This document shows, one piece after another, positions 11,837 to 52,600 of a DNA stretch of 64,000 nt. The number at the start of each line of letters is the position of its first letter. Position 1 is the stretch's first letter. Position numbers and translations under genes: made by a program. This stretch comes from Antedon mediterranea (Eukaryota > Animalia > Echinodermata), in assembly GCF_964355755.1 (NCBI RefSeq), contig NC_092671.1, positions 35,350,304 to 35,414,303 on the forward strand, read 5' to 3'. The notes under the pieces are model-generated. The model had not been told where the DNA came from. It searched no databases and saw only the letters and a program-made list of their open reading frames with translations.

Positions 11837-14800
11837 TCAAGAGTCCTTCTTTCTGCCATTTTGTAATCTTTTTTTCCGGTAAACTTCATCTGTAAATGGT
11901 CTTTCATATGTCAGTGCTATCTGGTAAGACGTCCACACTAATACAGTGAATACAAACCCTATGGGACTTGCATGCCTGTTGAGTTCAAGAAATCAAATTA
12001 GATATTTATTTCAGAGCTCAATTTAGTGCTATTTACTACTACTACTATAGCCAATTCATCCACTTTTGTTCTATTTTATTTCAACTTATTTATAGGGTGA
12101 CTCTAAATAGCATATCCTGACAATCAAGGGGCCCTCTTGATGAGTGACAGTGTGTATACTAGCACACTGTCACCCCCTACTCGTCTCGATGTACTAGGTT
12201 CTTTAAAGTGCACATGAGCCAGATGTGTACACTGCACCTACAATTTATAGTCCTTATCCGAGAAGACTCGTTCTACCACCATGGAGCGAATGAGGCTCAA
12301 ACCCTTGCCGATGTTAATATGGCAAGTTATTATGGTTCCAGTGTCTTAACTGCTTGGCCACTCACCGCTATTTGGGCTAGAGTTCCACAATCATTATCTG
12401 GATCTAGACAATATATATGTACTTTTGAAATATAACGCACTGTACATGCTAGTATGTATTGACTATAAGTTTAATTAAATGACAGGGGCTGGTCAAGCAC
12501 ATCACAAGATGACAGTTTTATACTTTTGCTTTTCCGCTACTACCCTGTTATACTTATATGTTTGTTTTTTTGCTATGTAGAAAGATTGAAAATAAATAAT
12601 AATAAATAAATAAATGGAAAAGGTACGATTCAAAGTAAGATAAATTCATCCTTAAATTTCATTGTTGTGGTTGGGCTTTTAACTATGAGTCTCAGGAGCT
12701 TATCCCTGCACCCACACAAGTTCTCTATTTTGGACGATACTACTTACCAAATGGCTAGTCCAAGCCAGTTTAACGTTGATCCCAAATACATCGGATCATG
12801 TGGAATGTTAAATGGAAATTTTGTAACTTTTTTATCCAAAAGAATTCCAAAATAATCACCTGTAAGAAAATAACCATTTATGTCATTTATGATCAATTTA
12901 ATTTATATGAAAGATGTGTTAATTCCAAGCCATATTCTATAATGAAAGATGAATCATACACCCAGTTTTGTAAAAGTCTCGCCGGTTTCTGATTGACTGT
13001 ACCTACCATAGAAACCATATATGTAGATAAAGGAACTCCTTGGTCTTGGGAGCCTATTTCCTGTTTAAGTCAATAATGTTGATCGATAACACGCATAAAG
13101 CTCTGTTTACACTATCAAACTAGTTTAACAAAAAAAGTGTGATGCGTCCAAATATGGTAGTGATATGACATCATCATGTCTATATATGGGCACATCACAT
13201 TTTTGTTACATAAAGTTTGATAGTGTAGACAGAGCTTTAGACTGCCTTTTATAACAACTTTTGTATTATTCAAGCTCTGCTTATAAAAAATGTGATCAAC
13301 TATCGGTACCTACCAAAGAATGTCCCTGTAAATCCTAAAGTCCAAAAGCTCCAAATGACTAAAGTCATTCCAACAGCTAAGAGCACCGAGGCAGCCGTCT
13401 TTGACATGGGCATGGCTTCCAAAGTCTCCCATTTAGGCTGTGATTGTAGAGTCGTTTCATACCTGTGATGATAAACAAATGACCATGAGCCTATTGTACA
13501 TGGATGTTATCAAACAAGAGATAGGTCGGTTTTAGAATTTTCATTTTGAATGCCAGTGCCTGTCTACACTATCAAACTAGTTGATTTGATGTGGTCAAAT
13601 ATGGTAGTGATATGCTCAAATATGGTAGTGATATGACATCATCATGTCCATATATGGGTACATCACATTTTGTTTGTCACATCATGGAGGTATAACCTCC
13701 ATGGTCACATGAAGTTTGATATTGTAGACAAGGCTTAAGCTGTGTTGTCTGTGACATATTTACATAGGCGTACACAAATATACTATTATATACAGTGTTC
13801 AGCAATGGGTCTTCTGATAATAAAGCAAATAGTGCAATAATTCAGCATTGACAATGTTTGTGCATCTTTTTTTAACACTGAGAACACATTGACAATGTAA
13901 AAACTTTAAAAACTTACTGGATATCTCTAAGACATACTAAAAGCAGGATAGGGAGTGCTAGTGCTACACAACCTTTGAAGGGACTACCAAACAGAGTGCT
14001 TAACTTCTTGGTATAAAACTCCCATCGTGCAATCTGAAAGACAATAAAGTCAATGTAAATTTGACATGAGGCTCATTGAAGGTGACAGACATAGTTGCAT
14101 CATTAGAAAAGCCAGAGGTTGAAATCTTGTCAAACATTTTTTTAAATTTTTATTTTTTAAAATTTTATTTTATTCAACCAACAGCGATGAAACCGCCACT
14201 AACCGGTTGAATCTAAACATAATAAATGTAAAATGTATTCAAATAAACAGCACAAACATAAACAAAGATCACAGCATTAAAGAAATTTAACAATTTTACC
14301 CTTAAATACAATCATAAAATAAATCAATATCCAAACAAGTAACAAGTAACCTATTAAATGTGTTAGGTAACCGCTGAAAAATACCAAATTGAACTCGGTT
14401 TTTATACTGCACGGTACATCCCGCGTTATCATCAGTATTATTCAGGAGACAGTCTACTGTAAAACAAACAAAAATCTCTATTTTCCCGCAAAATGTTTAA
14501 CACTACAGACAATGCCTATGCAGAGGAGGACACTCCTATACAGAGGAGGACACCCACATTCAGAGGAGGACACCCACATTCAGAGGAGGACACCCACATT
14601 CAGAGGAGGACACTCCTATCCAGAAGAGGACACCCCATTCAGAGGACACACCTCATTAAGGCAACATTTTGTTGGGTACTAAAATGGTGTCCTATTAATA
14701 GGGGTTCTACTGTACTTAAAGACCACTAGTAAAACCAATGTTGTCAGAATAATATCAGGTATTAGTATTAGTAGAAAAACAATGCAATGCAAATTCAATA

Positions 14801-17800
14801 GTTAAAGTCATAGACTGACATTGGACATATTCTATGACTGTCAAACATTATAATAACTTTTCTATGTATCTTCAGACGGATTTTACTTTCGTTCTTGAAA
14901 CATTTGCTTGAGCGTGGCCCGACAGATATTGCTCTAGATACTTAATATAAATCTATGTAAATTTAATTATATAAAATGTCTGAGAAGAAATACACATTTG
15001 TAATTTGAAATTAATTTTGGATTAGAGAGACGATACATTTGGGAAGTGTATATGGGGAGTTTTTAATTGAGGATAACATCTATTCAAGGTTAGTTTAACT
15101 TTAGTCGGACATAACTTCTCATGCCATTCAAAACAGAGATCAAGGAAATTCTTGCAAAAATTGTTCATTTGTTGGGTAATTGTCAGATACCGGAGGGCAA
15201 ATGCAAGAACGTGTGCACATCATTTATTTTGTCTTTTAAGCATATTTTTTTTTATGCAAAACCGTATAAATAAATTGTATAAAATAATTTTGAATATTGC
15301 AGATTTCGAAACAAAGGGAATATAAAAGGCTGTAGCTTAAAGGTACGGTAAAGGTCCTATGTTCAATTCTGAACATAGGGTATTAGAAGCTCATTTTACT
15401 TAAGTTTTGGCATTATGTGGTAGGGTGTGGCCTGTTCCTTTCCACGCCGCTTTATTCTCCCTAGTATTTTCAACCAGGTACTCATTTACTGGAAGTGCTT
15501 GGAATTGAACCCAGGTCTCTCTGTATGACCGTCAAGTGTTCTAACTAATCGACTACACAACGCCAAATACAAATATTCCAAAAATGTCTTCTCAATGGCT
15601 ATGTACATCATCATAGAGATTTTTATAACTGCTAATGCTCGATTCTGACTTCGCAAAGTAACAACGTAAGGCACGATAACAGATGGTAATTGGATGATCC
15701 ATCATGTCATGATTGGTCATACTTGTGGTGTATCAACATCCTTGCGTTGCATCCAAGTGGGAACCTTAATATAGTGCACTCTCTAATGTGTGTAGTTGAC
15801 TACTTGCATTCACTGTTAACATAGTCTGTCTTGTATGTATATAGACAAATCAAATGTTTGATTCAACATTGCTAAATCATGTACATATATTTGCACTGTT
15901 TAATAGCCCCCTAATACTAGGTCTAGTTTACCTATCCGATGGGACATGCTGACAAACACACTATTAATGTTAACATTGCCTGTCTATTGCAATTGCAGAC
16001 GAATCAGATACTTAATCCAACATTGCTACATACAGTACTAGCAATGTTTATCAGTGCCCTTGTCTAGTTTATCTATCCGATGGGATTCTAACATGCAGTT
16101 TCAACTCACAGTAATAAGTATGAATGTTAACATCACTTGTCTTGTCACTGGCTGGTTAAAAAGACATCGTATGAAATATTTATTTATAAAGCATGAATTT
16201 GTACCGTTCCTAGACGAATCCTGTCTAGATACGTATCTCCAGGGAACTTAACAGTCAGAATACTAGCATTTGCCATGTAGCTGACAATTTTTTATGGGTT
16301 GTTAATAAAATGTTTACACACAGTATAATCCAATGATGATATTGAGGAAAATGCGACTTGTACTAATTTTAATAATAACGCTCATGGTGTAAAGCTTTGT
16401 CTACACTATAAAACTACAGTAGGATGTGGTAGTGATATGACATCATCATGTCCATATATGGGCATATCACATTGATAGTGTAACAGCCTCCATTATCCTG
16501 AGCTCTGATTCTGTAATGCTTGACATTAACACCTCCACCCAACCACACATTAGATAGCAAAATCATATGCCTTAGGAAATTACCTTGGGAAATCCAAAAC
16601 TTTCTGAACCTAGGTCAACCCATGTCTACACCAGTGAGTTTGACATATAACTATTTGTCTATGTACTTGTATTCAGGAAGAGAGCCATTATTTTTTTACC
16701 ACGGACAAATGATAGCATAATATTTATAGTATGTCAACTATGATATAAAAAAGTAGTTCATAATTTAATTTTAGCTGTCAAAGTGAGGAGCATGCACCCA
16801 CCCTAGCGCTACCCCTGGATGCACCCTAGCGCTACCCCTGGATGCACCCTAGCGCTACCCCTTGATGCACCCTAGCTTGATGCACCCTAGCGCTACCCCT
16901 GGATGCACCCTAGCGCTACCCCTGGATTCACCCTAGCGCTATCCCTGGATGCACCCTAGCGCTACCCCTGGATGCACCCTAGCGCTATCCCTGGATGCAC
17001 CCTAGCGCTACCCCTGGATGCACCCTAGCGCTACCCCTGGATTCACCCTAGCGCTACCCCTGGATGCACCCTAGCGCTACCCCTGGATGCACCCTAGCGC
17101 TATCCCTGGATGCACCCTAGCGCTACCCCTGGGATGCACCCTAGCGCTACCCCTGGATGCACCCTAGCGCTACCCCTGGATGCACCCTAGCGCTATCCCT
17201 GGATGCACCCTAGCGCCATCCCTGGATCCACCCTAGCGCTATCCCTGGATGCACCCTAGCGCTACCCTTGGATTCACCCTAGCGCTACCCCTGGATGCAC
17301 CCTAGCGCTATCCCTGGATGCACCCTAGCGCCATCCCTGGATCCACCCTAGCGCTATCCCTGGATGCACCCTAGCGCTACCCTTGGATTCACCCTAGCGC
17401 TATCCCTGGATCCACCCTAGCGCTACCCCTGGATGCACCCTAGCGCTACCCCTGGATGCACCCTAGCGCTATCCCTGGATGCACCCTAGCGCCATCCCTG
17501 GATCCACCCTAGCGCTATCCCTGGATGCACCCTAGCGCTACCCTTGGATTCACCCTAGCGCTACCCCTGGATGCACCATAGCGCTACCCCTGGATGCACC
17601 CTAGCGCTACCCCTGTATGCACCCTAGCGCTATCCCTGGATGCACCCTAGCGCCATCCCTGGATCCACCCTAGCGCTATCCCTGGATGCACCCTAGCGCT
17701 ACCTTTGGATTCACCCTAGCGCTACCTCTGGATCCACCCTAGCGCTACCCCTGGATGCACCCTAGCGCTACCCCTGGATGCACCCTAGCGCTATCCATGG

Positions 17801-20800
17801 ATGCACCCTAGCGCCATCCCTGGATCCACCCTAGCGCTATCCCTGGATGCACCCTAGCGCTACCCTTGGATTCACCCTAGCGCTACCCCTGGATGCACCC
17901 TAGCGCTATCCCTGGATGCACCCTAGCGCCATCCCTGGATCCACCCTAGCGCTATCCCTGGATGCACCCTAGCGCTACCCTTGGATTAACCCTAGCGCTA
18001 TCCCTGGATCCACCCCTGGTATGTGTTTCAGAGCAAACATAATTTCTATGTATCACACTAAAGTTGAATGATGGAAAGACAGAGTTTATTATCGTCGGGT
18101 CTAAATGTAACATCTCCAAAATCAACATCACACATATCAGAATCGGAAACTCTAACATCGCTCCATCATCGGTGGTCCGGAATCTGGGAATCATGCTGGA
18201 TAGTAATCTCACTATGGAAGCACAAATAACAACTGTATCCAAAGCAGCATGCATATCGATTAGGAACCTTGGTCGTATTCGCGGTAATCTTAACAAGAAA
18301 ACAGCTGAATTGATTGTACACTCATTTGTCACTTCTAAAATTGACATTGGTAATGCCTTGTTGTTTGGCATACCAAAATCTCAAATACAACGTTTGCAGC
18401 GCTTGCAAAATATGGCAGCTAGAATTGTAACTTATACAAAATCAAACGCTCACATAACTCCTGTCCTGATGGATTTGCATTGGTTGCCTGTTCAACAACG
18501 TATTAAGTACAAACTTGCGTTGTTTGTATTCAAGATCCTAAATGACAGTGCTCCTGCTTATTTATCTGACCTTGTGGATCGTTACGAATCATCCTGCAGA
18601 GGCCTACGATCATTGTCACAAAACCTTCTTCAAGAGCGTAGAGCGAAAAATCAGTGGGGTCAGAGATCTTTTTACGTTGCGGCCGCAAGTGTATGGAACA
18701 GCTTACCAGCAACAGTTAAATGCTCAACTAGTCTAAACAGTTTCAAGACCAACCTAAAGACGTCGCTATTCGCTGATGTTCTCGCACGTTGTTAATGCAC
18801 AAAGCGCCATGAGCGCCACATGGGTGGAGGATACCGGCGCTATATAAGTTTTCATTTATTATTATATTATTCAATGATACTTTGAAGTTTGAATTGAAAA
18901 GAGTCATTTGCTCCACCTTGTGTAAATAATGGAAGTAACATCTTATGACACAATTATAAATAGTCAGACACTCGGGAAAGTCCAGACACTTGCGTGACAA
19001 AATCATGTGAACTTCAGATGATGATTCTGGCTTTGTTTTATTTATCACAAAACGGAACAATGTGAACTGAAAGATAAAGCTGAACGACTAAGTGCTAAGT
19101 GCACATTGTAATCCCAATTTCACAAGCAAATCTTTAAATTAAAATAATTCAATTTTTGTAAAATGGTTAAATTAATGATTTAAATTTTAAAGATGAAAAC
19201 ATAATTTTTTTGTTGAATATGCCATTTTAATGTCACATAATAGTTATTTACTTTAAAAAAATTTTTTTATCGAAAACAAATTTATTTACCTGAAAAACTG
19301 TAATTTAAAGCAAAACATAGTCAAATTGGCTGCCAGGTTGGTTGAACTTTATTTTGTCATTTATTTTGTCATTTATTAAGAGAAAACATTATTTTTTTTT
19401 ACTGATGGAGACTTTATTAAAACTACAAAATAACCTATTCAAAGCCTGATTTAATTAATCTTCATTTTTCATGATTTTGGAGGATCGGGCATGAAATTAT
19501 CATACCATCTACATTCACATTTGTTCAGCAATATATAGTATAATTACATTGAATGTTACATACAATATTGCAAGCAGGGATCTACAGAGCAAAAGTTCAT
19601 GTAACCCTGAATGTTCATTGGTCATTCCAGATCACATGAACATTTAATAGCCTTAAGAGGGTTTTAAACATTAATCTATTGGCTAAAAGGAGTAACTGTA
19701 AAGCTATGTCTACACTATCAAACTAGTTTGACAAAAAAAGTGTTAAGTGCCAAAATATGGTAGTAATATGCCCAAATATGGTAGTGATATGCCCAAATAT
19801 GGTAGTGATATGACACCAATATGTCCATATATGGGCAAATCACATGTTTTTGTCACATAAAGTTTTATAGTGTAAACTGAGCTTAAGTTGTTTTTAGTTA
19901 TCACAGAGTCATTAATATTAATTGGACAAGCTTAATCAATAGAACTATTCAATTAACTGTCCATTGTTATACGAGTGGACTGTTTGACCATTCGGACATT
20001 ACAGTTTGGCTAACTTACCACTGGGTTTTTAAACTATCACACTGTTTAAAGTAGAAAGTTTCTGTCACTTCCCAAACATGAAATCTTCTATCATTCGGAA
20101 AAAGAAAAGTTCTTAATCTTATACTAGTTGCTACTTAAAGACGACCACAACAAATTGTAAAATCACATTTTCATTCTTTTGTTGGTTGTTAATATACAAG
20201 TTTATTTAATTTAGTCCTTATATGACAAATATGATGGCATTACCTCCATTAGAGATTTTCTACTGTTTCAGTAGGGCAGTGTTTGGACGTTGGATTACTG
20301 ATCGTGATTCGAATCCAACTCTCGCCGCATTGCTTGTATTCTTAGGCAAGATACTTTACTTACTTACTCTCTCCACCCAGGTGTATAAATGGGTACCTAG
20401 TTAGATCAAGACACAACTTTGTGCTGATTACTGGCTGCATTATGGGAGTATGTTTCCTTACATGTTGCAAAAAAAAATTATCGGGGTAATAATATGCAGC
20501 GCATTGAGAGCTTTCTAGTATACGCTATATAAGAATGAACTATTATTTTTAGTAGCCTTAATGGAAGTGGATTTTATAGAATGCAAAGTTGATTTTATGG
20601 ATATTTAAAAAAAAAGAAAGCAAGTTTTCAATTAATGTGGAAACACATAATTCTATAAGGATTTGTACAAAAGACATCATTTCCTTTCAGTGTATTAAGA
20701 CAATATTTAAGATTGTAATGCTCTCAATTAATTCATTACGTCTTCGGACGTCATAAAAATAATTCTTGAAAATTCTTTTTTTTCAAATATAAAGATATTA

Positions 20801-28700: not shown

Positions 28701-31700
28701 TATATAGCTAGCGTATGATGTTCGTACGTTACCGATGTTTACCAGCTAGGCCTACAAAACTAAGCCTAGCTAGGCTAGGCCTAAGACCGTCCACGAGAGG
28801 TCGATCGCCGCGAGCTACTTAGGTAGTGCATTGTTTCTCACTTTTTATCATAATTTACCATAAAACGTACATTTAAGACAAGGAATGACATGGTTTAATG
28901 TTTTTAAAGTGATATATATGTATTATTTTCCAAAAAACGTCCAAAATTGCAGGGAAGGGGTCTTTAAGTATTATATAAAGTACCTTGAGTGAATTTAAAC
29001 ATATCATATTACATATAATATTGCATTATTTAATATAATTTTATCATAAATGCCTATTATGCCAACATGAAAATAAAATATATTATATATATATTCTTTA
29101 AAAATCCATCAATTCAAATATATTGACCAAAAATAAGATGGAGCCATATTTAAAATGATTTAAAAGCATGGGAGGACCTAAGGTAAATATTACTTAGAGA
29201 AGTTGTGAATGGGTAAAAAGTTCACAAAAGGCATTCCATTGTACAGTGTAAAGAAAAGCCCCATGTCGGTTCACACTCAATTGTTTTCACAAATCCATTG
29301 TCATCAATTGTCAGCAGGGGAAACGAAAAGCTACCACCAGTAAAGACACAAGCCAATTTACAATAAGGTCCTTTTGTGTCACCTAGCCTTGTATCATTAA
29401 ACACACCCCTAAATTATTCATAGGGGTGTAAATATAAAGGCTGTGGGACACTTGTAGAGTCATTCAGTTCCTGTCCTGGTGGCAAGAAGGTTCTAACTCC
29501 ACAGTTGAGTTTTTTTGGTAGGAATTCTGAGAGGTGAATATCAGAGCTGAAGTTTTAACAGTGCATAGAGTAAGTACTTAGTGTTGTCTCAATTTACTTA
29601 GACTGTGTTTTTATGCTTGTACATCTTGTCAGATGTACTGTACCTTAAGTATGTATGTTGTATGTAATCTATATTGTAGTTGTTTGTACCACTCTCCAGT
29701 ATTTCTTAAGGACACTAACTAATGTATACATTGATGAATGTTTGATTACAAAACTTTAGAACATTAATTGCATGTTGTTTTAGGGTCTTTCACAGACCAT
29801 ATTTAAAGGGTTCAGTACCTCTATATAAAATTAATAGTAATTCTAAAATAGGACATCTTAATACACACTAAGCATTAAATATACTAAATTAATTCAGATT
29901 CGGCTAGACTTGATTAAAGGTACAACTATCTAATTTTTCTTAAAAATTACTAAGTAGTTATACATTGATTGAAGTTTAAATACAAAACTTTAGAACAGTA
30001 TATTGTCTGTTGTCTTTAGGGTCTTCCTCACACCATCTTTAAAAGGTACGGTACCTCCATATAAAATTGTTTTCTTAAAGTAGGATAGTTATATATTTCA
30101 TTTTATTACATGCTAAGCATTGAATATATTAAATTAATTCAGATTCGGCTAGACTTGATTAAAAGTACAAATTAAATTTGTCTACCATTTCATTACATAT
30201 AGCGAAAACACACTTAGACAAATTCAAACACATAAAACATCTATTTTAATTCTCAAATCATTTCTGTGTTGTCAAACATTAGGGAATAGATGATATTGAT
30301 AAAACCATTCTACATAATTAATATTAATTCTCTGCTTGGCTTATATTACTCTATCTAAAAGGTAAATTTAGCACGGCTGAACTTGATCCAGCCAGACAGA
30401 GCAGGAAAGAACTCTCAAAAGTCCACTAGACGAAAAAAAAAACAAAACTCGCAATTTAGAAATAGCCCAAGATTTCATCCTAACAAGTCATTTCCGAGTA
30501 CATTTTTATTTAAGTCTAGGTGACACGTTACTTTTTTTTTAACCAGACTAAAAAAATTGCAATATAAGTCTAGCTTTTTTCTTTAAAAAAATAATAATCT
30601 TACTCATATTTTGATTCAAGTTTGAGTCATTCTTTTGCAAAGTTTTTGGTAGTTATGAAAAAGTGATATGAATTGTAATGATTGGTTAGACATCTGGAAC
30701 GCAAAGGTAGTCTCAGTTGATTTAAATTGACTAAGGAACATCCTCTTTGCCCAACCCATCCACTATTATAGGAATCATCTAATTATAACACATCTCAGAC
30801 TTAACAATTATTTTATCACCTGATGACTGACAGTGACATGTACTTAATAGTTGGTTAAAACATTTATTAAATTCGTTAGGAAGTCTCAGTTCGCAAACAC
30901 CGTTTCAAAGAATTGCCAACCTGCTCCTATTCTCTAGAGGTCTCAACTTCCCGAATCATCACTGGTCATTTTGCGTATGTAGCATGTAATCCCGGGGGAA
31001 CAACACTTAATAATGTATGAATAAAAAAAACAAAAAGGACAAGATTGTCTAAGATAGTAGAGTGAATCACTGCACAGTAAGGACAGACAGATTTTAACCG
31101 CATTTAATTTGTCTTTTTTCCCTTTGACTCGCCCTCTAAACCCCGGGAGGAAACTTTGGATATTGCGCTTAATATCTGTTTTCTTATAGTTAAAGTGTTG
31201 AATTAAGCACTTGTGGCTATAAGAGCGGGTGACTTTAGACCACGGGACAAGACAATATAAATAGGCTACTACCGGGTGTCAAATGACAGAGGGGACGAAC
31301 TTTGATAGCAAAGACACGACTGAGCGTATACTGCTTGTAATATCTGGAGGATTAGAGACAATATGAATTTTCTACTAAGTATATTTGGGTAAGTTAGTTG
31401 TATACACTGGCTGGCTTTGTGTTGGGTCTGTGTACGTATGTGGGATACTTGGTATATGGTGTGTACACTTTAGTTTTTAGTACTGTTTGTTCTATTGTAT
31501 TGCATTAGAGGCACACAAGCAATGGTGGATGTGGCTAAGATATAGGCTATACAGTAGGTAAGTTGTACACTTTTGTAGCTTCCTAAGGTGTATGAGCTAC
31601 AAATATTAAGATATAAGTACTTAATTAATTATTTATTGTACCTTTAACCTATGCCCTTATAACACATTATGTGTATATATGATGTATCATGTATTATGTG

Positions 31701-34700
31701 TGTTAGACTTAGCCCCTCTAACATCTATCTATACAAAACCATATAGATAGTAGTAGTTAATTAATTATATGTATATTTATTTATTGTACCTTTAACTTAT
31801 GTCCACTATGTGTATATATGATGTATTATATGTGTTTAACCTTTAACCCCTATAATATCCATCTATAACAAACCATATGTAAGATTATATGTGATGACTT
31901 AATCAATAAACTTGATTTTATACAGGATATAGATTAAACACTAACTAGTGACTGTGGATTTAAAGAACTACGAAATGTAATTTTTCCGGTGATTCTTGGT
32001 TTTTGTAGAACAGCTCATGTAAAATCTATACCATGAGTTGTCCCACAAAGAACAAAAATCATTTAACAACAAATACTTGAGCAGTGGACAATACCTAAGG
32101 TGGAAATAACTTTTTCAGTTAGTGACTATATGGATTTAAAGAAATACTTATGTAATTTTTCCGGTGATTATTGGTTTTTGTAGAACAGCTCATGTAAAAC
32201 ACATAACGATGAGTTGTCCCACAAAGAACAAAAATCATTCCTTCGGAATAAAACGGATTTAACAACAAACCGGATACTCGAGCAATGGACAATAACTGAG
32301 ATGGCTTCAACTTTTTAATATTAATAATGATTTTTGGTTTTTGTAGAACAGCTCATGTAAAATCCATAACCATGAGTTGTCCCACAAAGAACAAAAATCA
32401 TTCCTTCAGAAATTGGATCAAGAACAACAAGACTATGCTTGCATTTAAACAGTGGATACTTAACCAAGATGACCTCAACATTTTAACAATGATTTTTGGT
32501 TTTTGTAGAACAGCTCATGTAAAATCCATGTCATGAGTTGTCCCACAAAGAACAAAAATCAATTGTTCAAGACAACATGATTCTGCTTTTCAAGACACAA
32601 TTGATATCAAGATTTATTCAAACAAGATGGCATTAATATTTTAACAATGATTTTTGGTTTTTGTAGAACAGCTCATGTAAAATCCATGTCATGAGTTGTC
32701 CCACAAAGAACAAAAATCATTTCTGCAGAAAATGGATCAAGAACAAACAACAAGACTATGCTTGCATTTAAAATGGATTTAAAAACCAACAAGCTACTCG
32801 AGCAATGGACAATACTACCAATATACTGTAACACCAACTTGTTAACAATGATTTCTGGTTTTTGTAGAACAGCTCATGTAAAAAAAATAACGATGAGTTG
32901 TCCCACAAAGAACAAAAATCATTCATTTGGTATAAAAATGGATTTAAAAACCAACAAGCTACTCGAGCAATGGATAATAACCAACATAGCATTAACTTTT
33001 TAAAAATGATTTCTGGTTTTTGTAGAACAGCTCATGTAAAATCCATACCATGAGTTGTCCCACACAGAACAAAAATCATTCCTTCAGAGAAGAAGATGGA
33101 ACTATTTTCAAAGACACTGGCAGTTAAATATTTACCAAGATTTATTCAACAAAGGTGGAATTAACTTTTTAACAATGCTTTCTGGTTTTTGTAGAACAGC
33201 TTATGTAAAATCCATGTCATGAGTTGTCCGACAAAGAACAAAAATCATTGTGAATTCATCAAGATTTTTGAAGAAGAAATGTAAAAGAATTATTGGTAAA
33301 GTGATATTCTCTCAAATGCAAAAACTAAAAGATTAAAATAATAACACTTGGTACAGTACTAATGAAAGCATATTATTCAATACTACTATTTAAAGATGTA
33401 TTTGTCCTCCAAAAACATGAAAAATAAAGAATTAAAAAAATCAGATTTTAAATAGGCCAATTTGCAGTTTTAATAATGTTATTCACTTCTGTAGACCAAA
33501 AATATAACAAAAATAATTATCTCACTTATAAAAAGAAAAAAGAAAACCAATGTCTGACAGACAATTTAGGTATTTTTTGCTTTAAATTAGTTATTTTCAG
33601 GAAAATATTTTTTGAATAACTATTATGTGTCATTAAAATAATGTTTGTAGGGGAACAAAATATCTTATATATCTATAAATCATAAAAGCAATAAATAAAA
33701 TGTTTTGTGTAATCTCTTTTATACATTAATGAGAAAACAATTCTTAAATATCCTTTAGTTAAACAAGTTTTAGTTCAACGAACAATTTCTATGACAACTC
33801 ACAACAATAACCTTTCTTCTTGGTATGCATAACAAGACATGTGTATTTCAATGCTAAATTCTTAAAACCCCGCCAAGTTTTACCATCCAATGGTGACCTC
33901 AACACACAGGCATTGAGCACTGTGAATCATCACACCCTATTGTTGAAAGGTTACACAATGGGAACATGTTTGCCTCCTAGGTTTTAGTCTGCACAATAGA
34001 CTTATAAAATAAAACCATTATAAAGGAATTGTTTGGATTAAGATATTGAATGCAAAAAAACTTGTTGCACAATCCAGCTATAATGAGCATCATTTATCAT
34101 CACCTAGGTAACTGTACATTATTATGATTACATCATAGGGTTTGTTTCTGCTGCATTGCGCCGAATAAACCGTTTTTGTTTCTAAATAGATTTAAAATGT
34201 AATTTTTATAGTGACTGCATTTCGACTAAATTTTTACTCCAAAATAACCATTTAAATGAGTGGGTGGTCGTTGACAGAAATCGTTAGCATTACCCGAAAT
34301 GCAATTGGTCCTGGCGGTTAATTCAAACGTTACTGCAGTGTAGGTGACTCGAGGTCAATCAAATAACAGTTATTTTGTGTTGTAGCTAAAAATTGCCCAG
34401 TAATAACTGATTAAATGGTTGTTCTAACTTCTAACAACAAACTGAATGTTATTTTTGCGCTGCCATTGAGTACCAGTTACCGGTACTCAAAAATTGTCCT
34501 GTTTCTGCTCCTAAGAAATTGGGGTTAATTTATTCAAACCGTTTTTTTTTATCCAGCAGAAACAGGACAATAGATAAAGTTCCAGCTGAGCTCTTACAAA
34601 ACGAAGGTTAAAAACTCATTATTCCCAAAGACAAATGTTTAGGTTGTTTACTTGGACACTACTCAAAGGTTGACCAAGCTAGCTAACTGTGCGTTTATTA

Positions 34701-37700
34701 ACTTAAGTTCAACTATTGAGGGCAGCAAACAGAAATTTATATAATTATGTACAGTCAACTATATTTTGGAATAGATAGGATGAGTGTACAGTAAAAGAAT
34801 GAAATATTGTACTAAAATATATCAGCTGTCAATTGAATGTTCTTTAGCTACTTTTTGATGTTAAATACTTTTACTTTAAAACATTGCAGAACTCACGGTG
34901 GTCAATTAGACAATCACTGGCAGCCAATGTTCATGTATACACTGAGCAAATTATTTCACAATCTTTAAATCTTTGTCTACACTATCAACTTTATGTGACC
35001 AAAAAATGTGATGTGCCCATATATGGGCATGATTATGTCATATCAGTACCATATTTGGGCATATCACTACCATATTTGGGCACATCACACTTTTTTTTGT
35101 TAAACTAGTCTGATAGTGTGGCTTAGTGTGTGACGCTGGATTAAAGATTGTGATGTCGTGGTTCGAATCAAACTCTCCCGCACATGCTTGTATTCTTATT
35201 AGGCAAGACACTTTACTTACATTTGCCTCTCTCCACCCAGGTGTATTAAATGGGTATCCAGTTAGATCAAGACACAACTTTGCACTGATTACTAGCTGTC
35301 TTATGGGAGTATGTTTCCGTAAGTGTTTGATCCAAAAAATGATCGGGGTAATAATGCTTTTAAATAAATGTGGTATTATTATGTGGTATTATTAGTTATC
35401 CGCTTAGTAGCGGATAACTCCTTGTAACTGTATGAAATCATCTTTTTTTTTTTTTTCTGTATTATTCTTTCTTTCTGTCAATTTTGTGTCTCGCGTATCT
35501 CAAAAACTTAAACAAAACATTTTATAACTTTGTCAACATGTGGGCATTCACGTGAAATTGTGCACCTCCTATTGTGAATGACGTCAGAATTGCGCAACGT
35601 GATTTACGCGCGTTTTAACGAATTTCGCGTATTTAACATAGATCGAAAACCATATAGCAATTTAAATTGAAACTTAACAAAAGTTTAATTTATATCTTGC
35701 GCTAACTGACTGTGGAAAAAAATGGCATGTTTCACACGAAGTTACGCGCGCACGGGCGTTTAAAATTTCAAAATGCGAAAAATCAATTTCTAATCAACTT
35801 TCTACGCGTTTCATGTCATTTTGAGCATGTCAAAAATTCCTACGCGCGCGCATATTTTTACTCGCACGGTGCGCACGTGGCATTGAAAATAAATTTTTTT
35901 CGCGTGATTCATGTTTTTCCAGCCTTTTCTAGTAATTTTACCAACTTTTGAACAATTTTGACCTAAAATTACGTCGTACGGGCACATCCAATTGGATAAT
36001 TTACGTGCGTTTTTGATGAAAAAGTTCAAAAATTTAATTCGTCAAAATTATGCCTTTTTTTAAACATTCATAGATTTTAAACTACGAGGTGAACTTTTTT
36101 TAAATTATATATTTTGGAAGTTGATGAGTTGTAGATATGGAATCATGCATTAATATGGGTAATCGGACATTATAACGTCATCGTATGGCCACGCGAATAT
36201 AAAATATAGGATTTTTATATCTTTCGTCATAGCGCATCACATTTAATAGAGCGCATCTCCACTTATCCGTTTTTTATTTTCACCCCGATTTTGATATTGT
36301 CTAGGTGAATGAACTATCTTTCGCATGAGTTAAAAATATTTTAATTTTTATGACGTCATCATGTCTAAAAATGTAAATAACGTGGGTCAACTATTTTCAT
36401 CTTTACAGTAACTTTCAATCTGTTATAGCTCGTCAGAATAAAATGTGATAATCATGATTAAAACGTTTTCTGGAAGCTATTGAATTGTAGATACGAATTC
36501 ATGTAAACATTTTGCCAATCGGATGTTGTGACGTCATCATATGGCCAGTTGAATAAAAAAAAGGCGTATTTTCATATTTTGCGTAATAGTTCATCACATT
36601 TAAAAGGGCGCGCATCTATATTTTACGTATTCAAATTTCTTCTACACGTTAATATGTGGTTGCTGAGATAATTTCCTTCCAAAATTACTACTGTACCTTC
36701 GCGTTTCCTTTTGAAAATTAAAATAAAATACGGGTCCCGTAATTTCACCTATTTTACACTGTTTGTGACATGTATACAGATTATACTGTGTATACTATAT
36801 GACAGAAAATATACAGCATTCAGCACTAACAACATATCATATTCTTCAGTTCAGGTCATAATGACATAATCTTTTTCGGTGTGCAATATTCCAACGTATG
36901 ACGTGCACGTGGCGTTTGTCGTGCGGATAACTAACTCGTCAAAGTGACGAGTTTCATGTCTAGTTATTATAGTGTGTTTACTGAGCTTTAGAAACAAATC
37001 AATTGACTTACCACGTTCCAGAAGACAGGAGTTAAAAAGATACATATGATAGTAACGTAAATATTGACATCTTTAAGGTCAATGAACTGTGATGTTCCCA
37101 TCAGGAATGAAACATCAACCTAATAATATATAAAAATGTACACAAAATATGAAAAACAATACAAATTTGACAAAAATATCATATTTTTCGTGGCTAATAG
37201 TAGTACCAGACCAATTGTAATCATGTTAAAGGGCCAACTGAGACAAGTTAATATTAGGTTGGTCCTCATTTTGTTGTTGAATTTAAACGTAAAACCTCCT
37301 TGCCTGTAGGGCACCTTTATTGAATGAGGTGTAAAATGAACATGGGGCAATAAATGTTGCAGTTCAGTTTCATTTCACACAACATTACATTATATATACA
37401 TTTATACTTATAAATAAATAATAAAACATTGTGTATGGAGATTACAATAAGCCATAATGGCTTTCTGAACTTCCAGATAAAACAAACAACAAATATGGTG
37501 ATATATAGGTATTTATTCATAAAAAGTACAAACAGGTGCATTGCAAAATCTACTTAATGAGTCCAGATAACCAAAAGAAACAATAAAAAAAATCAACATT
37601 TATATCTTTTACGATTTATTTACAAAGTGTGTTTACTAGAAATGTTTGCAATTTGCCAGACTTTGCCAGAAAACTCAATACGTAAATTTTGAGATGCACC

Positions 37701-43609: not shown

Positions 43610-46600
43610 ATGACAAGCAAACTATCTTTCAAAGCATCAAAGAAGGATCGGCCACGTTCCACAGGTAAGGAATTGCAGGGAGGAACCAGAGAGGTATAGT
43701 AACATACATGCCAACAATACCAATTTGGCTTGGAGACTCCCGTATTTCAGACTCATCTTCCGGCCTAGGCTAATATTGTGCTCACGGTTTTCCACAATTT
43801 CTCCCACATTATAAAGATAAATGAATTTTTATGTATCTGTGTGGTTTTCTGCATTAAAATATAACAAAAAGGCTAACAGTTACACACAACCAAATTTATG
43901 ATATTTAAGCCATTAAATTGTTACAACCATTTGCGGCCATAATTTTCTGATTTTGTTCTGAACAGAAAAGGGATTACCCTCAAATAACCACAATGCGATA
44001 ATGCTTGTGACGTCACACACTGCGCTCCTTACTTCACAATAATAGATAGAGGGCACTGTTGACCTAAAAAAAACACCACCTCCCTTTTATTTTTAATTTC
44101 ATGTTGGCATGTATGCAGTAATAGGTGCAGCCAGGTGCATTTAATAGGTTAAACAATTTGATCAAGTTTAGTAAAATTCAGAACCTAAATATCATGCCAA
44201 CCTGTCATTGCAGTCATTCTTTTACAAACAGTTTTGCTTTTGATGTTATCACTGAAAAGATTCAAGGTTAAAGGTTAGACTGATTTCCATTATTACACTT
44301 AAAAAACATAAAGAAGGGCTTTGTAATACTGTCACTGTCAATTGACAAAAACTACTTTTGACAAATCAAAGAACTACAATATTTTATTTCAACATTGTTT
44401 TTATCACTATAATAACATATAACTTGCTAAATTCATAGACATTTTAATAAGCTTTTTTCACAACATCAAAACACTTTTAATTTGATGAGAATATGTATAC
44501 AAAGGGCTAACAAAAAACGTGACCTTCTTGTTGCCCTATTTACACAATCCTTTACAATTTTACTTTTCAAATCATCTTCAACTGAAGTTTGTTTAGATGA
44601 GGTCAGCGCACCTAAAATAAAGAGACAATCAAACTTCCTAACAAAAGCATTCTGCTACAGGTGTTTGTTTGCAAAGCATCGCTAAATGTTTAGAAATGTC
44701 CTTATATTTTAAAAATTGTGGTAGTTGGTCAGTATTTTGTACAATATCTAACAATATGGATTCTACTGAAAGCAGTCTCTTAAGTTTTAGGACTAACAAA
44801 ACCCGTCGCAGAAGTTCTTCAGTTAAGGGCCTTGGTAAGAAATTATTCTAATAGTTTGGAAGTATTTTTCTGTGGAATGTCTTTATTTCTAAAAAAAATG
44901 TAAAAATTGCTATTTTGTGTATTGAATTAAACTTGTTTCTTTTTTGTGTAATTTTCAGGAGACCCGGGCCACATTTTTTGACAAAGCCTAATATTCAATT
45001 AGGAATAAGTAACTTAAGATATTAGATGTATTTCAATGTCTTGGAAGAGGCTGTATGAGGCACGTTACTTAGTTTAAACTAAATACTGTTTTTATTGTTA
45101 TGGTCTATTGACGTTAAACTTGTAATACACAGCTAAGCTAATACGGTAATTATTAGAGGGTTATCCATCATTTCTTAATGTAAAATCTGTCTTGAGTCCT
45201 ATATAAAGGTCTCAGCCAAAGTCAATGTTAAAAGATCCTAATATCTAGTACTTTATTTAAAATATTTTCCTCAATGTTCTATATACAAATCTGCTTACAA
45301 CTTATTCATAAATTCATAATATTAAGGTCGCACCCTCTTTTCACAGCAGAAGAATTCACCAAAGATACCATTAAAAATCTATTGTCCCCCTGAAAAAATT
45401 AATTTGTACAATCATTGTTTTTGTTGAATATCCCATTTTAATGTCACATAACATTTATCCATTTGAAGAAAATGTGAATCTAAAAAATATTATTTACCTG
45501 AAAAAACACTGTATTTTAAGGCAAATTATCCAAATTGGCTGCCAGCCAAGTTTTTGTTTGAATTTGACCATTTATTTGTCATTATATATGAGAAAACATT
45601 TTTTTTATGGAAGGGATTAACTTTATTAAAACTACAAAATAACCTATTCAAATTCTGATTTAATTAATAATTTTTCATGTTTTTTGGGAGACAATATACA
45701 GAAGGCAAACAATAAATACATTTTTAAATAATTTAGGTTAATTTTTATTAAAAATGTAGTTATAAATCAATTATTTAAATTAATTATACTTGTTATTAAA
45801 ATGTTAAAAATGATATTTTATGTAAAGCCGCCCTCAATTTTTTATCACCATAACAAGTGGCTAAATCCAAATTTACATTGCAATAGAGTGGAACAGGTTG
45901 AATAAATACTTTCAGTATATTAATGTTGCTGTTTCTTAGTTACCACATTATCAGAAAACAGACTCGTACACAGTTTAGTTTAAAGGTAAACACAAATCAA
46001 TGAATAACAACCGACATTAAATTGCGCTACTGTTGGCGTTGTTCAAACGTACGTTAAGTAGTTTGATACAGATAAAAACATGTTTTCATCTTCGTTAAAA
46101 GATATTACAGTACTTGCAACGTTACAAAATTGTCTGGTGCATAATTACCTTTCGTGATGATATTTATATATTGGTGATTTACAGCAGTTCTTTTGTTGCA
46201 AATTTTGAGAATTTGTTTTATGTACGACATGGACTTAAAGTATACAATAATAGATAGAACTCAGTCGAGATTGTCGACAACTCGCAGTAATAATAGTAGC
46301 AGTGCGTCAAGTGTAAAAACTAGAGTCCGATCAGGATCTACTAATACGTCAAAACATTCCAATCGTAAGTCAAGCCTATGAAAAGTTGTTTTATTTTATA
46401 TTTTAGATTAAACTTTACCTAGTTCAACCGTCTTGTGTTTCTTTTTCAGAGTATTTATCTTAAATTTTTAGTATGTAAATTAGTTTTTCTGGTTACAATA
46501 CAATATTTGTTAAAGTTTTAAATTGAAGTTTTGGGTATATAGTGTGATGCTTAACTACCTGTACCAGTCCTTGGTTCATTTTTAAGTCCTGCTCAAAGGC

Positions 46601-49600
46601 TTTCTCTAAAAAAAGAAATATAGAGAGTTTACTTTTTTGTTTGTTTTGTGAAGAAAAAAAACCATATAGTGATATAAATGATTAGTGATTACACTTGTTT
46701 GTAATAATTAAATTTTAAAAAGACATTCAGTACAGTATGTAAAACATTTCTTCTTTTAGTCATATGCTAAAACAATTTCCTTTTCAGATTCAATAAAATA
46801 AATGTCTACTTAATTCATTGTTGATGCAGTAATTGAAACCTATTTACTTCGAAGATTATTATTCTTTTAATAATTGAATTTTAACTAGAATAACAGTCTG
46901 TGAGCTCGATATGCAGCCGTAACCTCTTGAATACAATTTGATAAATGGCTTTACTCTAATCAGTCAATTATTTGTAGTTGAAGATCAAACAACACACACT
47001 CTTGAACGCTGATCGATCAATAGTCTCAGATTAAATTGAAAATAAGACGTAGATAAACATTTGGAAAAAAAGTAGTATCTCTGCCCTTTAACTCTCATCT
47101 TGTTTAAATATTAACATAAGTAGAATACAGTCTGTTCTTTTGAATTTCAAGTGGTCTAATGTTAGATAAATACAGTATATTAAAAATATAGTAGACTGTT
47201 GAATACTTCATTTAAACTATGGCATCAGTTATCAGCATTGAACAAAAAGTTTGTTTGGTGTGAACAGTGTTTAACTGGCTATAACTGGATATTGAATTTC
47301 TTCACGTTTTATGATTGGTGATTTTTTTAGTATTGTATGTATGCAGTCAGTTAATTCCGAATAAGACTTTTACAAAAGGTTGTAAATATTCGTCCCTACC
47401 AATGTTAAGGATGGTATTGGGACCATTGACTGTAAAGCAGTGTCTACACTATCAAAGTTCATGTGATGTGCCCATATATGGACACGATGATGTCATATCA
47501 CTACCATATTTGGGTACATCATATATTTTTGATAGTCTCGACAGAGCTTTAGAGAGAAACAATGAAAGGTTTTCTTTTTATTTAGAGACTCATTTTTATA
47601 CTCACTAAAACATGTATTTCTGCAGAAGCTGTGTTGATTTCACAGATTTCCTAAGTTTATCAAAACACTTGTTTAGGTTATTTGGTAATAAACTTATATA
47701 TTCTTTAAATTGACACAGATAAGATGAGGCGGGGCAAACGAGATGGCACACCAGACAAGATGGTGAGTCCCAACAACTCTCAATCACAGACGGAAGAGGA
47801 TCAATCTCTGCAAAGCAAGCAAGTCATCAATGGTGAAGACATCCAAGCTCTTGCCATTGACCTTTCACACTTACAAAAGGTAGTTGAACCGTCAATGTTT
47901 TCTGTCATCACGATCAAAGAAAAGAGAATTGAACTAAAACTAAAAGTGTTTTCTTTTTAAAGGTACGAGCACCTCGACCACCATCAGGTGATAAAGCCAA
48001 AACTGAGGTCACACGAAAGGTTATTGTGAAAAAGATAAAATCCAAGATGGAATTAGATGCTCTGAAAACAAAAACAATAACTGTAGCAAAGCCTGCACCG
48101 CCAGGTGTACCTCTAATGGTAGATGACTACTCAGGTAACCCTCTAACTTACTTTAAAAAAAAAACAAAAAAACCCTTTAACTTGCTGAAAACAAAAACAA
48201 TAACTGTAGCAAAGCCTGCACCGCCAGGTGTACCTCTAATGGTAGAGGACTACTCAGGTAACCCTCTAACTTACTTTAAAAAAACAAACCTCTAACTTAT
48301 TGAAAACAAAAACAATAACTGTACAGCAAAGCCTGCACCGCCAGGTGTACCTCTAATGGTAGATGACTACTCAGGTAACCCTCTAACTTACTTTAAAAAA
48401 CAAACCTCTAATTTACTGAAAACAAAAACAATAACTGTAGCAAAGCCTGCACCACCAGGTGTACCTCTAAAGTTAAAAGAAAGATAAAAACACCACGTCA
48501 GTTTTTAAACGATGCCGATATTTGTGAATACTTATACTTATTATAATTCTAGGTTGCAGTGGGCTTCGATTTGATGTCAATGGTCAGATCATACCGCACA
48601 GCATTCTTGGAACTATAGACGACTTCAAATATGAAGCAATGATTCGAGGGCATATGACGGTAAAAGAGAATTATTTTGTTTTTTGTCACACCTAAAATAA
48701 TGGGTTATATATGATTTGAACCCAAGAAATAGCGATAGAACTGGAAAGCATATGTATACATTAAGTGGCAATCTTTGTATCATTTGTTTTTTTTTTCAAA
48801 AAGTACCGGTGAATGGTAATATTGTTTTAATTTCAGTCGCCACATAATTTAGAACCACCAGACCGCCCTCAAACTCCTAAAGTTAAATTTGAAAAACCTG
48901 AGAAGGAGGTGACGCCAAGAGACGCTTTTCTGAACGAGAACAACGCCCTCAGAAATTGGCAGATGAAAATGTTGGAACGGAAAAAGACACAGGGATACAT
49001 ATCTAGTATGTTACATTTTTATATTTTAAGCCTTATAGATAATTATTAACTAATAATTATCTATAAGGCTTAAAATATAAAAATGTTGGATATCTATGCA
49101 TAATTATATAAAACTTCAGTAGAGTATGGTATGGTTTATGTGACAAAAAATTATCTATAAGGCTTAAAATATAAAAATGTTGGATATCTATGCATAATTA
49201 TATAAAACTTCAGTAGAGTATGGTATGGTTTATGTGACAAAAAAAAATGTGATGTGCCCATATATGGATATGATGTTGTCATATCACTACCATATTTGGG
49301 CACATCACACTTTTTTTGACAAATTTGATACTGTAGACAGAGCTTTTTAAATTTATATTTATCTATTTGATGAATACCGACAGAACAAACATGAATCTAA
49401 CTATATTTCAACTTTTTCCAGAACTGCTTTTGAAGCCAGCAGACACATTAGTGATGAACCAAGCCAAGGATTACCGTGAAACACAAGAGGAACGATACCG
49501 ACTTGATAGAGCTATTCCTGCAGTACAATATGGCAAAGGATGTAAGTGAACATCTATCTCTATTACATTCTAAGAAGGATTATTTCATTCTGGAAATTAC

Positions 49601-52600
49601 CTCACATACATACATTGATTAAACTACTGTATAACATGAGTTGAATTGAAATATATATTTATACTGGGTAACCTCTTCAGTCAAAGACTGGTCTCCCAGA
49701 GGGTGATCAGTGGCTGTGATGTACTAGTACACCGGGGTAACCCCCTACTCGTCTCGAAAGATGTACTAGGTTCTTTAAAGTGCACACGAGCTAGATGTGT
49801 ACACTGAACCTACGGTTTATAGTCCTTATCCGAGAAGACTCGTTCTACCACCAGAACCATGGAGTGAGTGAGCCTCGAACCCCTGCCGATGTTATGGCTA
49901 CGTAATTACGGTTCCACTGTCTTAACCGCTCGGCCACTCACTCACTCTAAAACATGTTTTGTAATAGCCATTATATTAACTTTGCAGATCGAGTTGGAAG
50001 TGAATTCTGGAAACAACAGGAAAGAGTAGGAGATGAGCTCTCAGGAATACAGTAAGTAGAAATACATTAAATAAACAGTTAGTTAAACAACATGAAAACA
50101 CCCCTGGTTTAATGGTAGAGCATCATGTCTCAGTTGTGGCAAAATCTTGTTAAATTTGAAGAAAAATACAAATATTTTTGTTTTACCTTTTTACCTAACT
50201 TTATAATTGTGCTTGATTTGCAGTATGACCTTAACTCAGACAGAGCGTGGGTATCCACCACCAGTAGAGCATATTGGACATCCGGATGTTATCAAACAAG
50301 AGATAGGTCAGTTTCAGAATTTTCATTTTAAATGCCAGTGCCTCCAAAAGATCCATTTGAATTTGAGATTTTTTAAAGTTCTAATCAAATTTTTATTTAT
50401 TTTTCACACCAAGGTGTTCAACTTGAAGGCGTTCGCTCATCTACACCCGTTAACTACCCATGGAAGAAATCAAGTTACTTTAAAGATTGGAAGAATACAC
50501 TAAGGGATGTTGATATTGATCTTGATGAGTTCAAACCGGTAGGTCACAGGTCAAAATAATTGTAGTGCTATAACATCTGATAAACAGTGACGGTGACAGA
50601 ATTGGTGGTGATACATTGAATTAAAAGTTACTTACATTTATTTGATAGGATTTGGCAAATTTACAAGTAATTGGTCGGAATAACTCTATGTTGATGGCAG
50701 AAAACGAATATCGAGAATCACTTCAAGAGAGCTCCCTTCCAGAATATATACCTGAAAATGAGGAAAATATGTGAGTGTGTTGATTTTAAAACTCTGTCTA
50801 AACTATTAAACTTTATGTGGCAAAAAAATGTGATGTGCCCATATATGGTGATGTATACATGATGATGTCATATCACTACCATATTTAAGCATATCACTAC
50901 CATATTTAAGCATATCACTACCATATTTGGGCACATCATACTTTTTTTTGTCAAACTAGTTCAATAGTGTAGACAGAGTTTTAGGATTTATATACATACA
51001 TTTGACCACTAATCGTATGAAAAATTCTTTTTCTTACTAGTGACCCATTGGCCGGACAACCAGATATTGAACAACCATTTATCGGACCATCTCTACAGTT
51101 CAACGATTTCACAGCACGCTGGGGTGGTGACAGCCATAGCATGAAGGGAAAGCTTGCTAACTCAGCGAGGGTGACGTTTGAAGCATTTGCAGGTGTTCGC
51201 AATACCTCACACCTGTATCTTGTAAATGATGGTACTACCACGATCTATTATAATTGGAAGGTATTGTTTTTGTTTATTTTATGCTTAGAATATTTGCATT
51301 TAATAAGTAACAAATTCCGAGATTTAGGTCAAACATTATTTTACAACCTCTGTACCAAGTTCAGGCCTAGTTATTTACCCAGGTAAGTTGGTTTCATAGG
51401 CCAATTATCACTAACTTGGGTGGGTAGGATAAACAAAGTATGAACAGGCCCATAAGTTAAAGGTACTTATATCTCCCACAATTCCCTTTTACCATGATCA
51501 TGTGATAGCATAGTACTAAAGAACAAGTAGACAAGTATTGTTTTCTTTCCAGAAAATTCCAAAAATAAATCCATTTGAGGGTTGTGCAACGCCAAAAACA
51601 CAGCGGTTCTACTTCAACACAAGTAGTGGCGTGCTTCTGCCCGGAGACAGCCTCAAGTTTCCATTTGTCTTCAAGTCACCAAACTCTGGCATCTTTACTG
51701 AGAAATGGCATCTGGAGACCAAACCTGTAGTCTGCAATGGTGCTGATCTGGAAGTGGTACTCCGAGGAGTTGCTCTAAAGGAGGATAAAAACAAGAAAGC
51801 TAGAAATGAACTTGAGGTAAGTCTTTATAAGGTTTATATAAAGCTCTGTCTACACTATCAAACTTTATGTGACAAAAAGGTGTGATGTGCCTAAATATGG
51901 TAGTGATATGCTTATGGTAGTGATATGACATCATCATGTCAATATATGGGAACATCACATTTTTTTGTCAGATAAAGTTTAATAGTATAGACAGAGAAGA
52001 AGTTTTATAAGGCAGGGAAATTTTGAATGACATGGGGACCTGTATAAAATACTAGGGAATAGATAAACTTTGGCCCATAGCATTTCATTTCTAAATCGAA
52101 TTACTTAATCTTGAAATCTACTTTTTAAATGTATTATTATTTAAACAGATGGAGCTACTACACAAGCAAGCCGTGGCAAATATTCGCATGATTGTTGACG
52201 AAATTATAGCAGGTGTTCGCACCCCTGACAGAGCACGGTCTCCGGTGGATGCTTACATTACTGATGAAGAAGTGTTTGAAAGACAAAACCCAGGGGTATG
52301 CACATGTGAATACACTTTATGTATTATGTTTAGTTTTGTATTTGTTTTGAATAGGCTAATATGAAAGGCATTCAACCATAGAAAGGAGACCAAAATAGGG
52401 AAATGAAATATGTGGAGACAGATGGTTAGAAAAACACTTCAGTTTTGGCCGGGAGACTCCAATACTTTAGACTTGTCTCCCACCAAATTCCAAATTTTCT
52501 CAAAGATAACTGAATTTTGATGTATATGTTTGGTTTTCTGCATTAAAATACAACAAAAAGGCTTACAAGACGCAAGCAAATTTACGATCTTTAAAGCTCA

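Follow-up and report, generated by a model that had tools for sequence, protein, structure and literature searches.

An eight-copy tandem array of mir-2009 hairpins, antisense within a PEMT intron of the feather star Antedon mediterranea

MIR-2009 is a microRNA family that the MirGeneDB 3.0 supplement places at the Ambulacraria node. An identical 22-nt miR-2009 is listed for Strongylocentrotus and Patiria (PMC3247247 supplement), and a 23-nt form has been tabulated as well (PMC4669494). The curated annotations of PMC11848845 (Dataset S1/S2), which could miss paralogues, give one locus each in Apostichopus, Patiria, Strongylocentrotus, and Ptychodera and one member in Lytechinus, with precursors of 59-62 nt. 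The Patiria miniata gene is intragenic and antisense to its host, pemt; the loci of Apostichopus and Strongylocentrotus are intergenic, and that of Ptychodera lies in the sense orientation in tcf12 (PMC11848845). The mature miRNA has been detected by northern blotting in urchin and sea-star embryos aged 1, 2, and 3 days (PMC3247247), and a value of 0.0000 is tabulated for it in each of three coelomocyte libraries of Apostichopus (PMC4669494); together these observations point weakly to a role in development. No function of MIR-2009 is known in the literature searched. Crinoids, the lineage considered here, are the sister group of all other living echinoderms. Their miRNA complement appears to be uncurated, and the MirGeneDB 3.0 supplement returns no match to Antedon, Anneissia, or crinoid.

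A stretch of 64,000 nt from Antedon mediterranea (the window) carries, at 31986-33251 on the plus strand, eight tandem mir-2009 hairpins spaced 157-202 nt apart. The mature-type 3' arms start at 32034, 32210, 32373, 32534, 32692, 32894, 33051, and 33220, so that the start-to-start spacings from copy 1 to copy 8 are 176, 163, 161, 158, 202, 157, and 169 nt; the arm positions and the intervals reported in the first-pass annotation of this DNA were reproduced exactly. The predicted pre-miRNAs of copies 1 to 8, all on the plus strand, occupy 31998-32055 (5' arm 31998-32019, 3' arm 32034-32055), 32173-32231, 32336-32394, 32498-32555, 32656-32713, 32857-32915, 33015-33072, and 33184-33241. The seven linkers between the stems (32062-33175) are 85-129 nt long and are mosaics of common blocks that are 75-87% identical to one another, and the upstream flank (31946-31989), which is co-duplicated with copy 1/2, is 85% identical to 32120-32164. 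A profile search of the 64-kb window with nhmmer found no ninth copy (next match E 0.56).

The Rfam family mir-2009 (RF03590) matches all eight copies on the plus strand over model positions 1-83 of 83, with scores ranging from 53 bits (copy 2) to 72 bits (copy 3) and E values of 4e-11 to 8e-17. Matches to the minus strand score 30-47 bits, that is 17-32 bits lower, and other families reach at most 25 bits. Every copy nevertheless falls under the RF03590 gathering score of 90 bits, a curation threshold, and a search of the whole window at the gathering threshold gives no matches; standard Rfam annotation therefore misses the whole cluster, an illustration of how such cut-offs can hide an entire miRNA cluster. 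In six copies the mature arm shares 21 of 22 positions with Spu- and Pmi-miR-2009, the sole difference from the urchin and sea-star sequence being at position 22 (A instead of C); copies 7 and 8 share 20 of the 22. The seed (positions 2-8) is the same in all eight. In copy 3, three lower-stem pairs (model positions 4, 5, and 9) are changed on both sides relative to the Rfam consensus with pairing kept. By sequence, predicted structure, and position, the array belongs to MIR-2009, pending reads. The 3' arm had been described as echinoderm miR-2009; the database match and the published mature sequence bear out the identity, but "echinoderm" is too narrow for a family that is ambulacrarian. An exact scan for the 21-mer gave four metagenome and no viral loci, which were rejected as chance: the four represent one ORF-dense sequence of 46-48% GC in which the match lies inside long ORFs and is accompanied neither by a corresponding 5' arm nor by an Rfam match.

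All eight plus-strand units fold into stable hairpins (z -3.3 to -5.9), none of 200 dinucleotide shuffles reaching as low an energy. The RNAalifold consensus has 28 predicted pairs, and the stem of copies 3 and 5 holds three mismatches (mature positions 9, 11, and 19), so that the earlier figure of 27 paired positions out of 30 is a fair description. If the cut sites are set by the mature 5' end known for miR-2009, each copy would yield a 22/22-nt duplex with 2-nt 3' overhangs and 17-19 of 22 positions paired, a loop of 14-15 nt, a precursor of 58-61 nt, and about 8-9 pairs in the lower stem. MirGeneDB-type structure criteria for canonical miRNAs ask for at least 16 pairs, 2-nt 3' overhangs, and a loop of at least 8 nt, and the predicted hairpins lie within these limits. 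When the whole 1.3-kb array is folded, the arms pair within their own hairpins at a probability of 0.98-0.99, which, with the close spacing and the single strand, is the configuration expected of a miRNA cluster. The basal UG, apical UGU, and CNNC motifs recognized by Microprocessor are optional. An apical UGU closes the 5' arm in all eight copies, and none of them has a basal UG. A CNNC is present at the usual distance (+16 to +18) in copy 4, which has the longest stem and the sole CNNC at +17/+18, and in copy 8 for the 22-nt form only. The predicted duplex-end energies favour the 5' arm over the 3' arm, and homology is therefore the basis for taking the 3' arm as the guide.

Departures from the common hairpin are concentrated in a few copies. 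Copies 2, 6, 7, and 8 carry pair-breaking changes, and copies 2 and 6 have an extra unpaired base at the loop. In copy 7, mature position 15 is changed from A to C with the loss of one pair; in copy 8, a C-to-G change affects mature position 11, which was unpaired before it, and a C-to-U change in the 5' arm creates a wobble. The seed is intact in both, and both variants are covered by contigs of sequencing run X1 with no differences. Some of these four copies may, to judge from the folds, be weak or decaying. Compensatory change is absent within the array, where not one pair differs at both of its bases and the covariation term stands at +0.42, a point against the interpretation favoured below.

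The near-invariance of the arms described in the first-pass annotation is evident at several levels. The 3'-arm 22-mer is the same in six of the eight copies, with a single substitution beyond the seed in each of the other two, copies 7 and 8; the 5'-arm 22-mer is identical in seven of eight. Between copies, arm regions are 95-97% identical, loops on average 78%, and linkers on average 55% (pairwise 45-74%), a shuffled control for the linkers giving 47.5%. The heavy divergence claimed for loops and linkers alike thus holds for the linkers, whereas that of the loops is only moderate, with six distinct sequences among the eight copies. Variable columns number 3 of 44 in the duplex and 7 of 15 in the loop that it encloses (Fisher p 0.0015). 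Since gene conversion would homogenise the loop along with its arms, conversion alone is an unlikely cause of arm identity.

A second organism offers a further comparison. Seven public sequencing runs contain the stretch, five from organism A and two from organism B, and contigs from runs X1, X3, X5, X6, and X7 were used. Organism B, which is about 5% divergent in flanking intron DNA, has contigs across linkers 3-4 and 5-6, from the upstream flank into copy 1, and over four distinct loop-spanning hairpins. It too has a tandem array, with at least five orthologous positions; its contigs do not include several linkers or copy 8, gaps that are no proof of absence. In three of the 16 listed B records, those that overlap arms and in which every difference can be placed, there are 0 differences in 174 arm positions and 14 in 238 loop and linker positions (p 0.0005). 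With two more records added, each having one unplaced difference counted against the arms, the figures are 2/273 and 14/259 (p 0.0016); arm sequence common to the copies is over-represented at the ends of unitigs, and the bias that this introduces makes the comparison supportive rather than exact. Purifying selection on the arms, as proposed at first pass, is thus supported both within the array and between the two organisms.

The linkers bear on the origin of the array. With the hairpins masked, self-BLAST finds 10 matches of 67-87% among linkers and flank: linker 5-6 joins a block like that of linker 3-4 to one like those of linkers 2-3 and 6-7, linker 4-5 resembles 7-8, and the upstream flank is similar to a portion of linker 1-2. 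Such mosaics are consistent with repeated unequal crossing-over. In an unlikely alternative, only one or two copies are functional and the others are a drifting tandem expansion, alike through recent duplication and conversion and of no consequence for dosage. Recent exchange is evident from three loops of identical sequence and from linker blocks that in some cases match exactly over 27 nt, and the substitutions in the mature arms of copies 7 and 8, the extra loop base of copies 2 and 6, and the scarcity of flanking processing motifs are what drifting copies would show. Mere drift after recent exchange, however, does not readily account for loops that vary between invariant arms, for linker pairs that mostly stand near random identity, or for organism B, in which the arms of copies 3-6 are unchanged and the adjacent linkers differ. 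Retention of most copies by selection is the reading preferred here.

The host gene was placed by tblastn with the A. mediterranea PEMT protein P0026 (231 aa), which aligns to the minus strand in six exons between 37925 and 11837; splice sites are canonical at the nine junctions inspected, and Pfam PEMT matches three exons downstream of intron 2. That intron (14034-37011, minus strand; 22,978 nt with GT/AG ends) lies between coding exon 2 (37012-37119; P0026 residues 25-60) and coding exon 3 (13918-14033; residues 61-99) and contains the hairpins on its opposite strand, which confirms the antisense intronic position suggested earlier. Being opposite in strand to PEMT, the array cannot arise from PEMT pre-mRNA and would need a promoter of its own. 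A TATA-like box at 31256-31263 (+), about 740 nt upstream of copy 1, is a weak candidate, five boxes of this kind being present in 3 kb of the AT-rich sequence. The first AATAAA downstream of copy 8 (33423-33428, +) is likewise a weak candidate poly(A) signal, there being eight AATAAA or ATTAAA matches in 1.25 kb and such signals being frequent in AT-rich DNA. An X-box scan found nothing near the array, and a sigma-70 promoter scan was set aside as inapplicable to animal DNA. Scanning of the window found no miR-2009 seed sites within PEMT exons or just past the PEMT stop codon.

Antisense placement in pemt is common to Patiria and Antedon, a case of positional orthology. Because a crinoid and a sea star share it, the site is probably ancestral; it is already tabulated and so not new, and with loci elsewhere intergenic or in tcf12, the PEMT position is shown in two lineages only. 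The eight-fold amplification is another matter: relative to the one locus catalogued in each of five other species (PMC11848845), eight copies are new, in agreement with what the first-pass annotation had proposed.

The same intron has other features. An Anneissia PEMT isoform, X2 (P0027), starts just before exon 3 (window position 14033) and has no counterpart to what exons 1-2 encode here, which hints that PEMT may use another first exon within the large intron. At 16799-18795 a 23-bp GC-rich satellite of 49 copies lies beside a 250-aa open frame that has no Pfam match and is presumably a LINE C-terminal remnant. Very high-copy dispersed repeats occupy 34964-37235, with summed contig depth up to 10^6. 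Two-copy direct repeats of about 140 and 245 bp (31609-31878 and 29725-30170, respectively) lie just upstream of the cluster, which indicates that local duplication is common in its vicinity. Among the high-copy repeats is an element with an internal tandem unit of 21 bp, which recurs across the whole window at 1194, 3138, 13587, 19748, 26533, 35039, and 50869. Elsewhere in the window, MYCBPAP (43610-62675, +) is divergent from PEMT and is represented by 18 tblastn pieces matching P0001; one of its exons is 100% identical to the Antedon mediterranea protein, 93% to that of Anneissia japonica, and at most 80% to those of other named echinoderms. Just behind a MYCBPAP exon, a 117-bp tandem repeat (48166-48470, 2.7 copies) repeats part of the coding sequence of that exon and possibly consists of duplicated exon pieces. 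Fumarylacetoacetase exons (3620-4718, minus strand; Pfam FAA_hydrolase_N in one ORF) lie downstream of PEMT on the same strand, and an 82-bp tandem repeat of eight copies with 94% matches is found at 1614-2273.

The iab-4/iab-8 locus is the model for a miRNA gene read in both directions. By analogy, the PEMT intron could give rise to a second small RNA by way of a mirror hairpin, or the antisense transcript could act mainly to regulate PEMT. Minus-strand hairpins are significant in seven of the eight copies and at least as stable as those of the plus strand in six, and the arrangement antisense in pemt is held in common with Patiria (PMC11848845). Stability of the minus strand is, however, to be expected, because A-C mismatches become G-U pairs on the opposite strand; its Rfam scores are the lower ones, its stem is interrupted by a symmetric internal loop of 3 nt, and in copy 8 the fold is lost, its energy being reached by 13 of 200 shuffles. 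A bidirectional locus of this kind is accordingly a very improbable reading, and the plus-strand array is preferred.

Contigs from the sequencing runs address whether the array is real and confined to its locus, genome-wide copy number being judged from the contigs rather than from contig depth. In the deep DNA run X3 (one of the runs X1-X4, which are possibly the source of the assembly and hence not independent), 24 contigs fall on 31500-33300 at 80% likeness and 21 of them are at least 99% identical; the wider stretch 29000-37500, with true dispersed repeats, draws 27,237 contigs in X1. The concern raised at first pass, that the unit might belong to a transposon family dispersed through the genome, is thereby answered, since nearly all of the 24 contigs are the locus itself and the window holds no other copy. 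All seven linkers are recovered in contigs, six of them in X3 and three (2-3, 4-5, and 5-6) in X5, a run from a different sample and study. Run X5 was also considered as RNA evidence and rejected, its even intron coverage being DNA-like. A satellite, MITE, or assembly artefact that resembles a miRNA by chance is thus largely refuted and almost certainly wrong, even though Tandem Repeats Finder calls parts of the array a 158-169-nt repeat and very high-copy dispersed repeats share the intron, for it would have to coincide with contigs nearly confined to the locus, linkers recovered from two studies, identity to a known miRNA, and a host gene in common with Patiria.

Copies, identity, position, and substitutions that avoid the arms are observed. 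The reading that best accommodates them, to which we assign a probability of about 80%, is that a mir-2009 array grew by unequal crossing-over from a single gene, is transcribed as one plus-strand RNA, and raises the dose of miR-2009. According to this model, repeated rounds of unequal crossing-over would have turned one ancestral gene into eight copies, and a plus-strand promoter independent of PEMT would produce one primary RNA. Drosha and Dicer would then cut from it up to eight miR-2009 molecules of the same seed, through 22/22-nt duplexes with 2-nt overhangs, and the 3' arm would serve as guide, as in urchin and sea star. Total output would be what selection acts on, so that most copies are preserved; the embryo or larva, where miR-2009 is detected in urchin and sea star, is the most likely setting. 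By analogy, then, the array most likely serves to raise the dose of one seed during embryonic or larval life. That an old address should carry an eightfold amplification under selection points to some stage or tissue in which the dose of miR-2009 matters, and the contrast of eight copies with one is a natural means of finding miR-2009 targets.

Feather-star development is yolky and non-feeding. A more specific proposal holds that feather stars converted a single-copy miRNA into a high-dose cluster of the early embryo, tied to this mode of development and convergent with miR-430/427 or mir-35-41 despite an unrelated seed. We regard it as quite unlikely; if it is true, the array would rank as the first echinoderm dosage cluster of this kind.

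The first-pass annotation had called the cluster possibly undescribed, and so it appears. No report of a miR-2009 cluster was found in the literature searched, which comprised open articles and some of their supplements. On miR-2009 copy number, nothing was found in the available portions of PMC7351957, PMC13079724, PMC11076791, PMC6039759, and PMC5638244, nor were there supplement matches in those of PMC8789304 and PMC11521371. The closest described relative of the array is MIR-2009 of Patiria miniata, which has the same seed, the same (3') arm, a mature sequence identical at 21 of 22 positions, a precursor of similar size, and the same position antisense in pemt. Catalogued MIR-2009 has one locus per species, whereas Antedon has eight tandem copies with A rather than C at position 22 and scores under the Rfam cut-off. 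The miR-430 genes of fish and miR-427 genes of frog are, like this array, same-seed hairpins amplified in tandem, with a different seed and a far higher copy number. A likeness to them, drawn at first pass, holds for the architecture but not for seed or family: the seed of the array is that of miR-2009, and no mir-430 is found among its 61 Rfam matches. A miR-430-like role is speculation; a zygotic burst and maternal clearance are traits of miR-430/427. In urchin and sea star, miR-2009 persists through days 1-3 (PMC3247247). The C. elegans mir-35-41 cluster is likewise a tandem array within an intron, with seven related hairpins in a host gene, its own intronic promoter, embryonic expression, and members more than 100-fold apart in abundance (PMC4462753). 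It belongs to another family, and the Antedon array has six of eight predicted matures identical over 22 nt. Tandem duplication of a conserved miRNA is also documented in an echinoderm by the 12 copies of miR-92 in Apostichopus (PMC5638244), and the multi-copy mir-2 family shows it to be a known route in invertebrates (PMC3384581). Tandem clusters of one seed are therefore a familiar design and the surprise is moderate; miR-92 and mir-2 are multi-copy across many species, whereas MIR-2009, eight-fold in Antedon, is catalogued elsewhere as single-copy.
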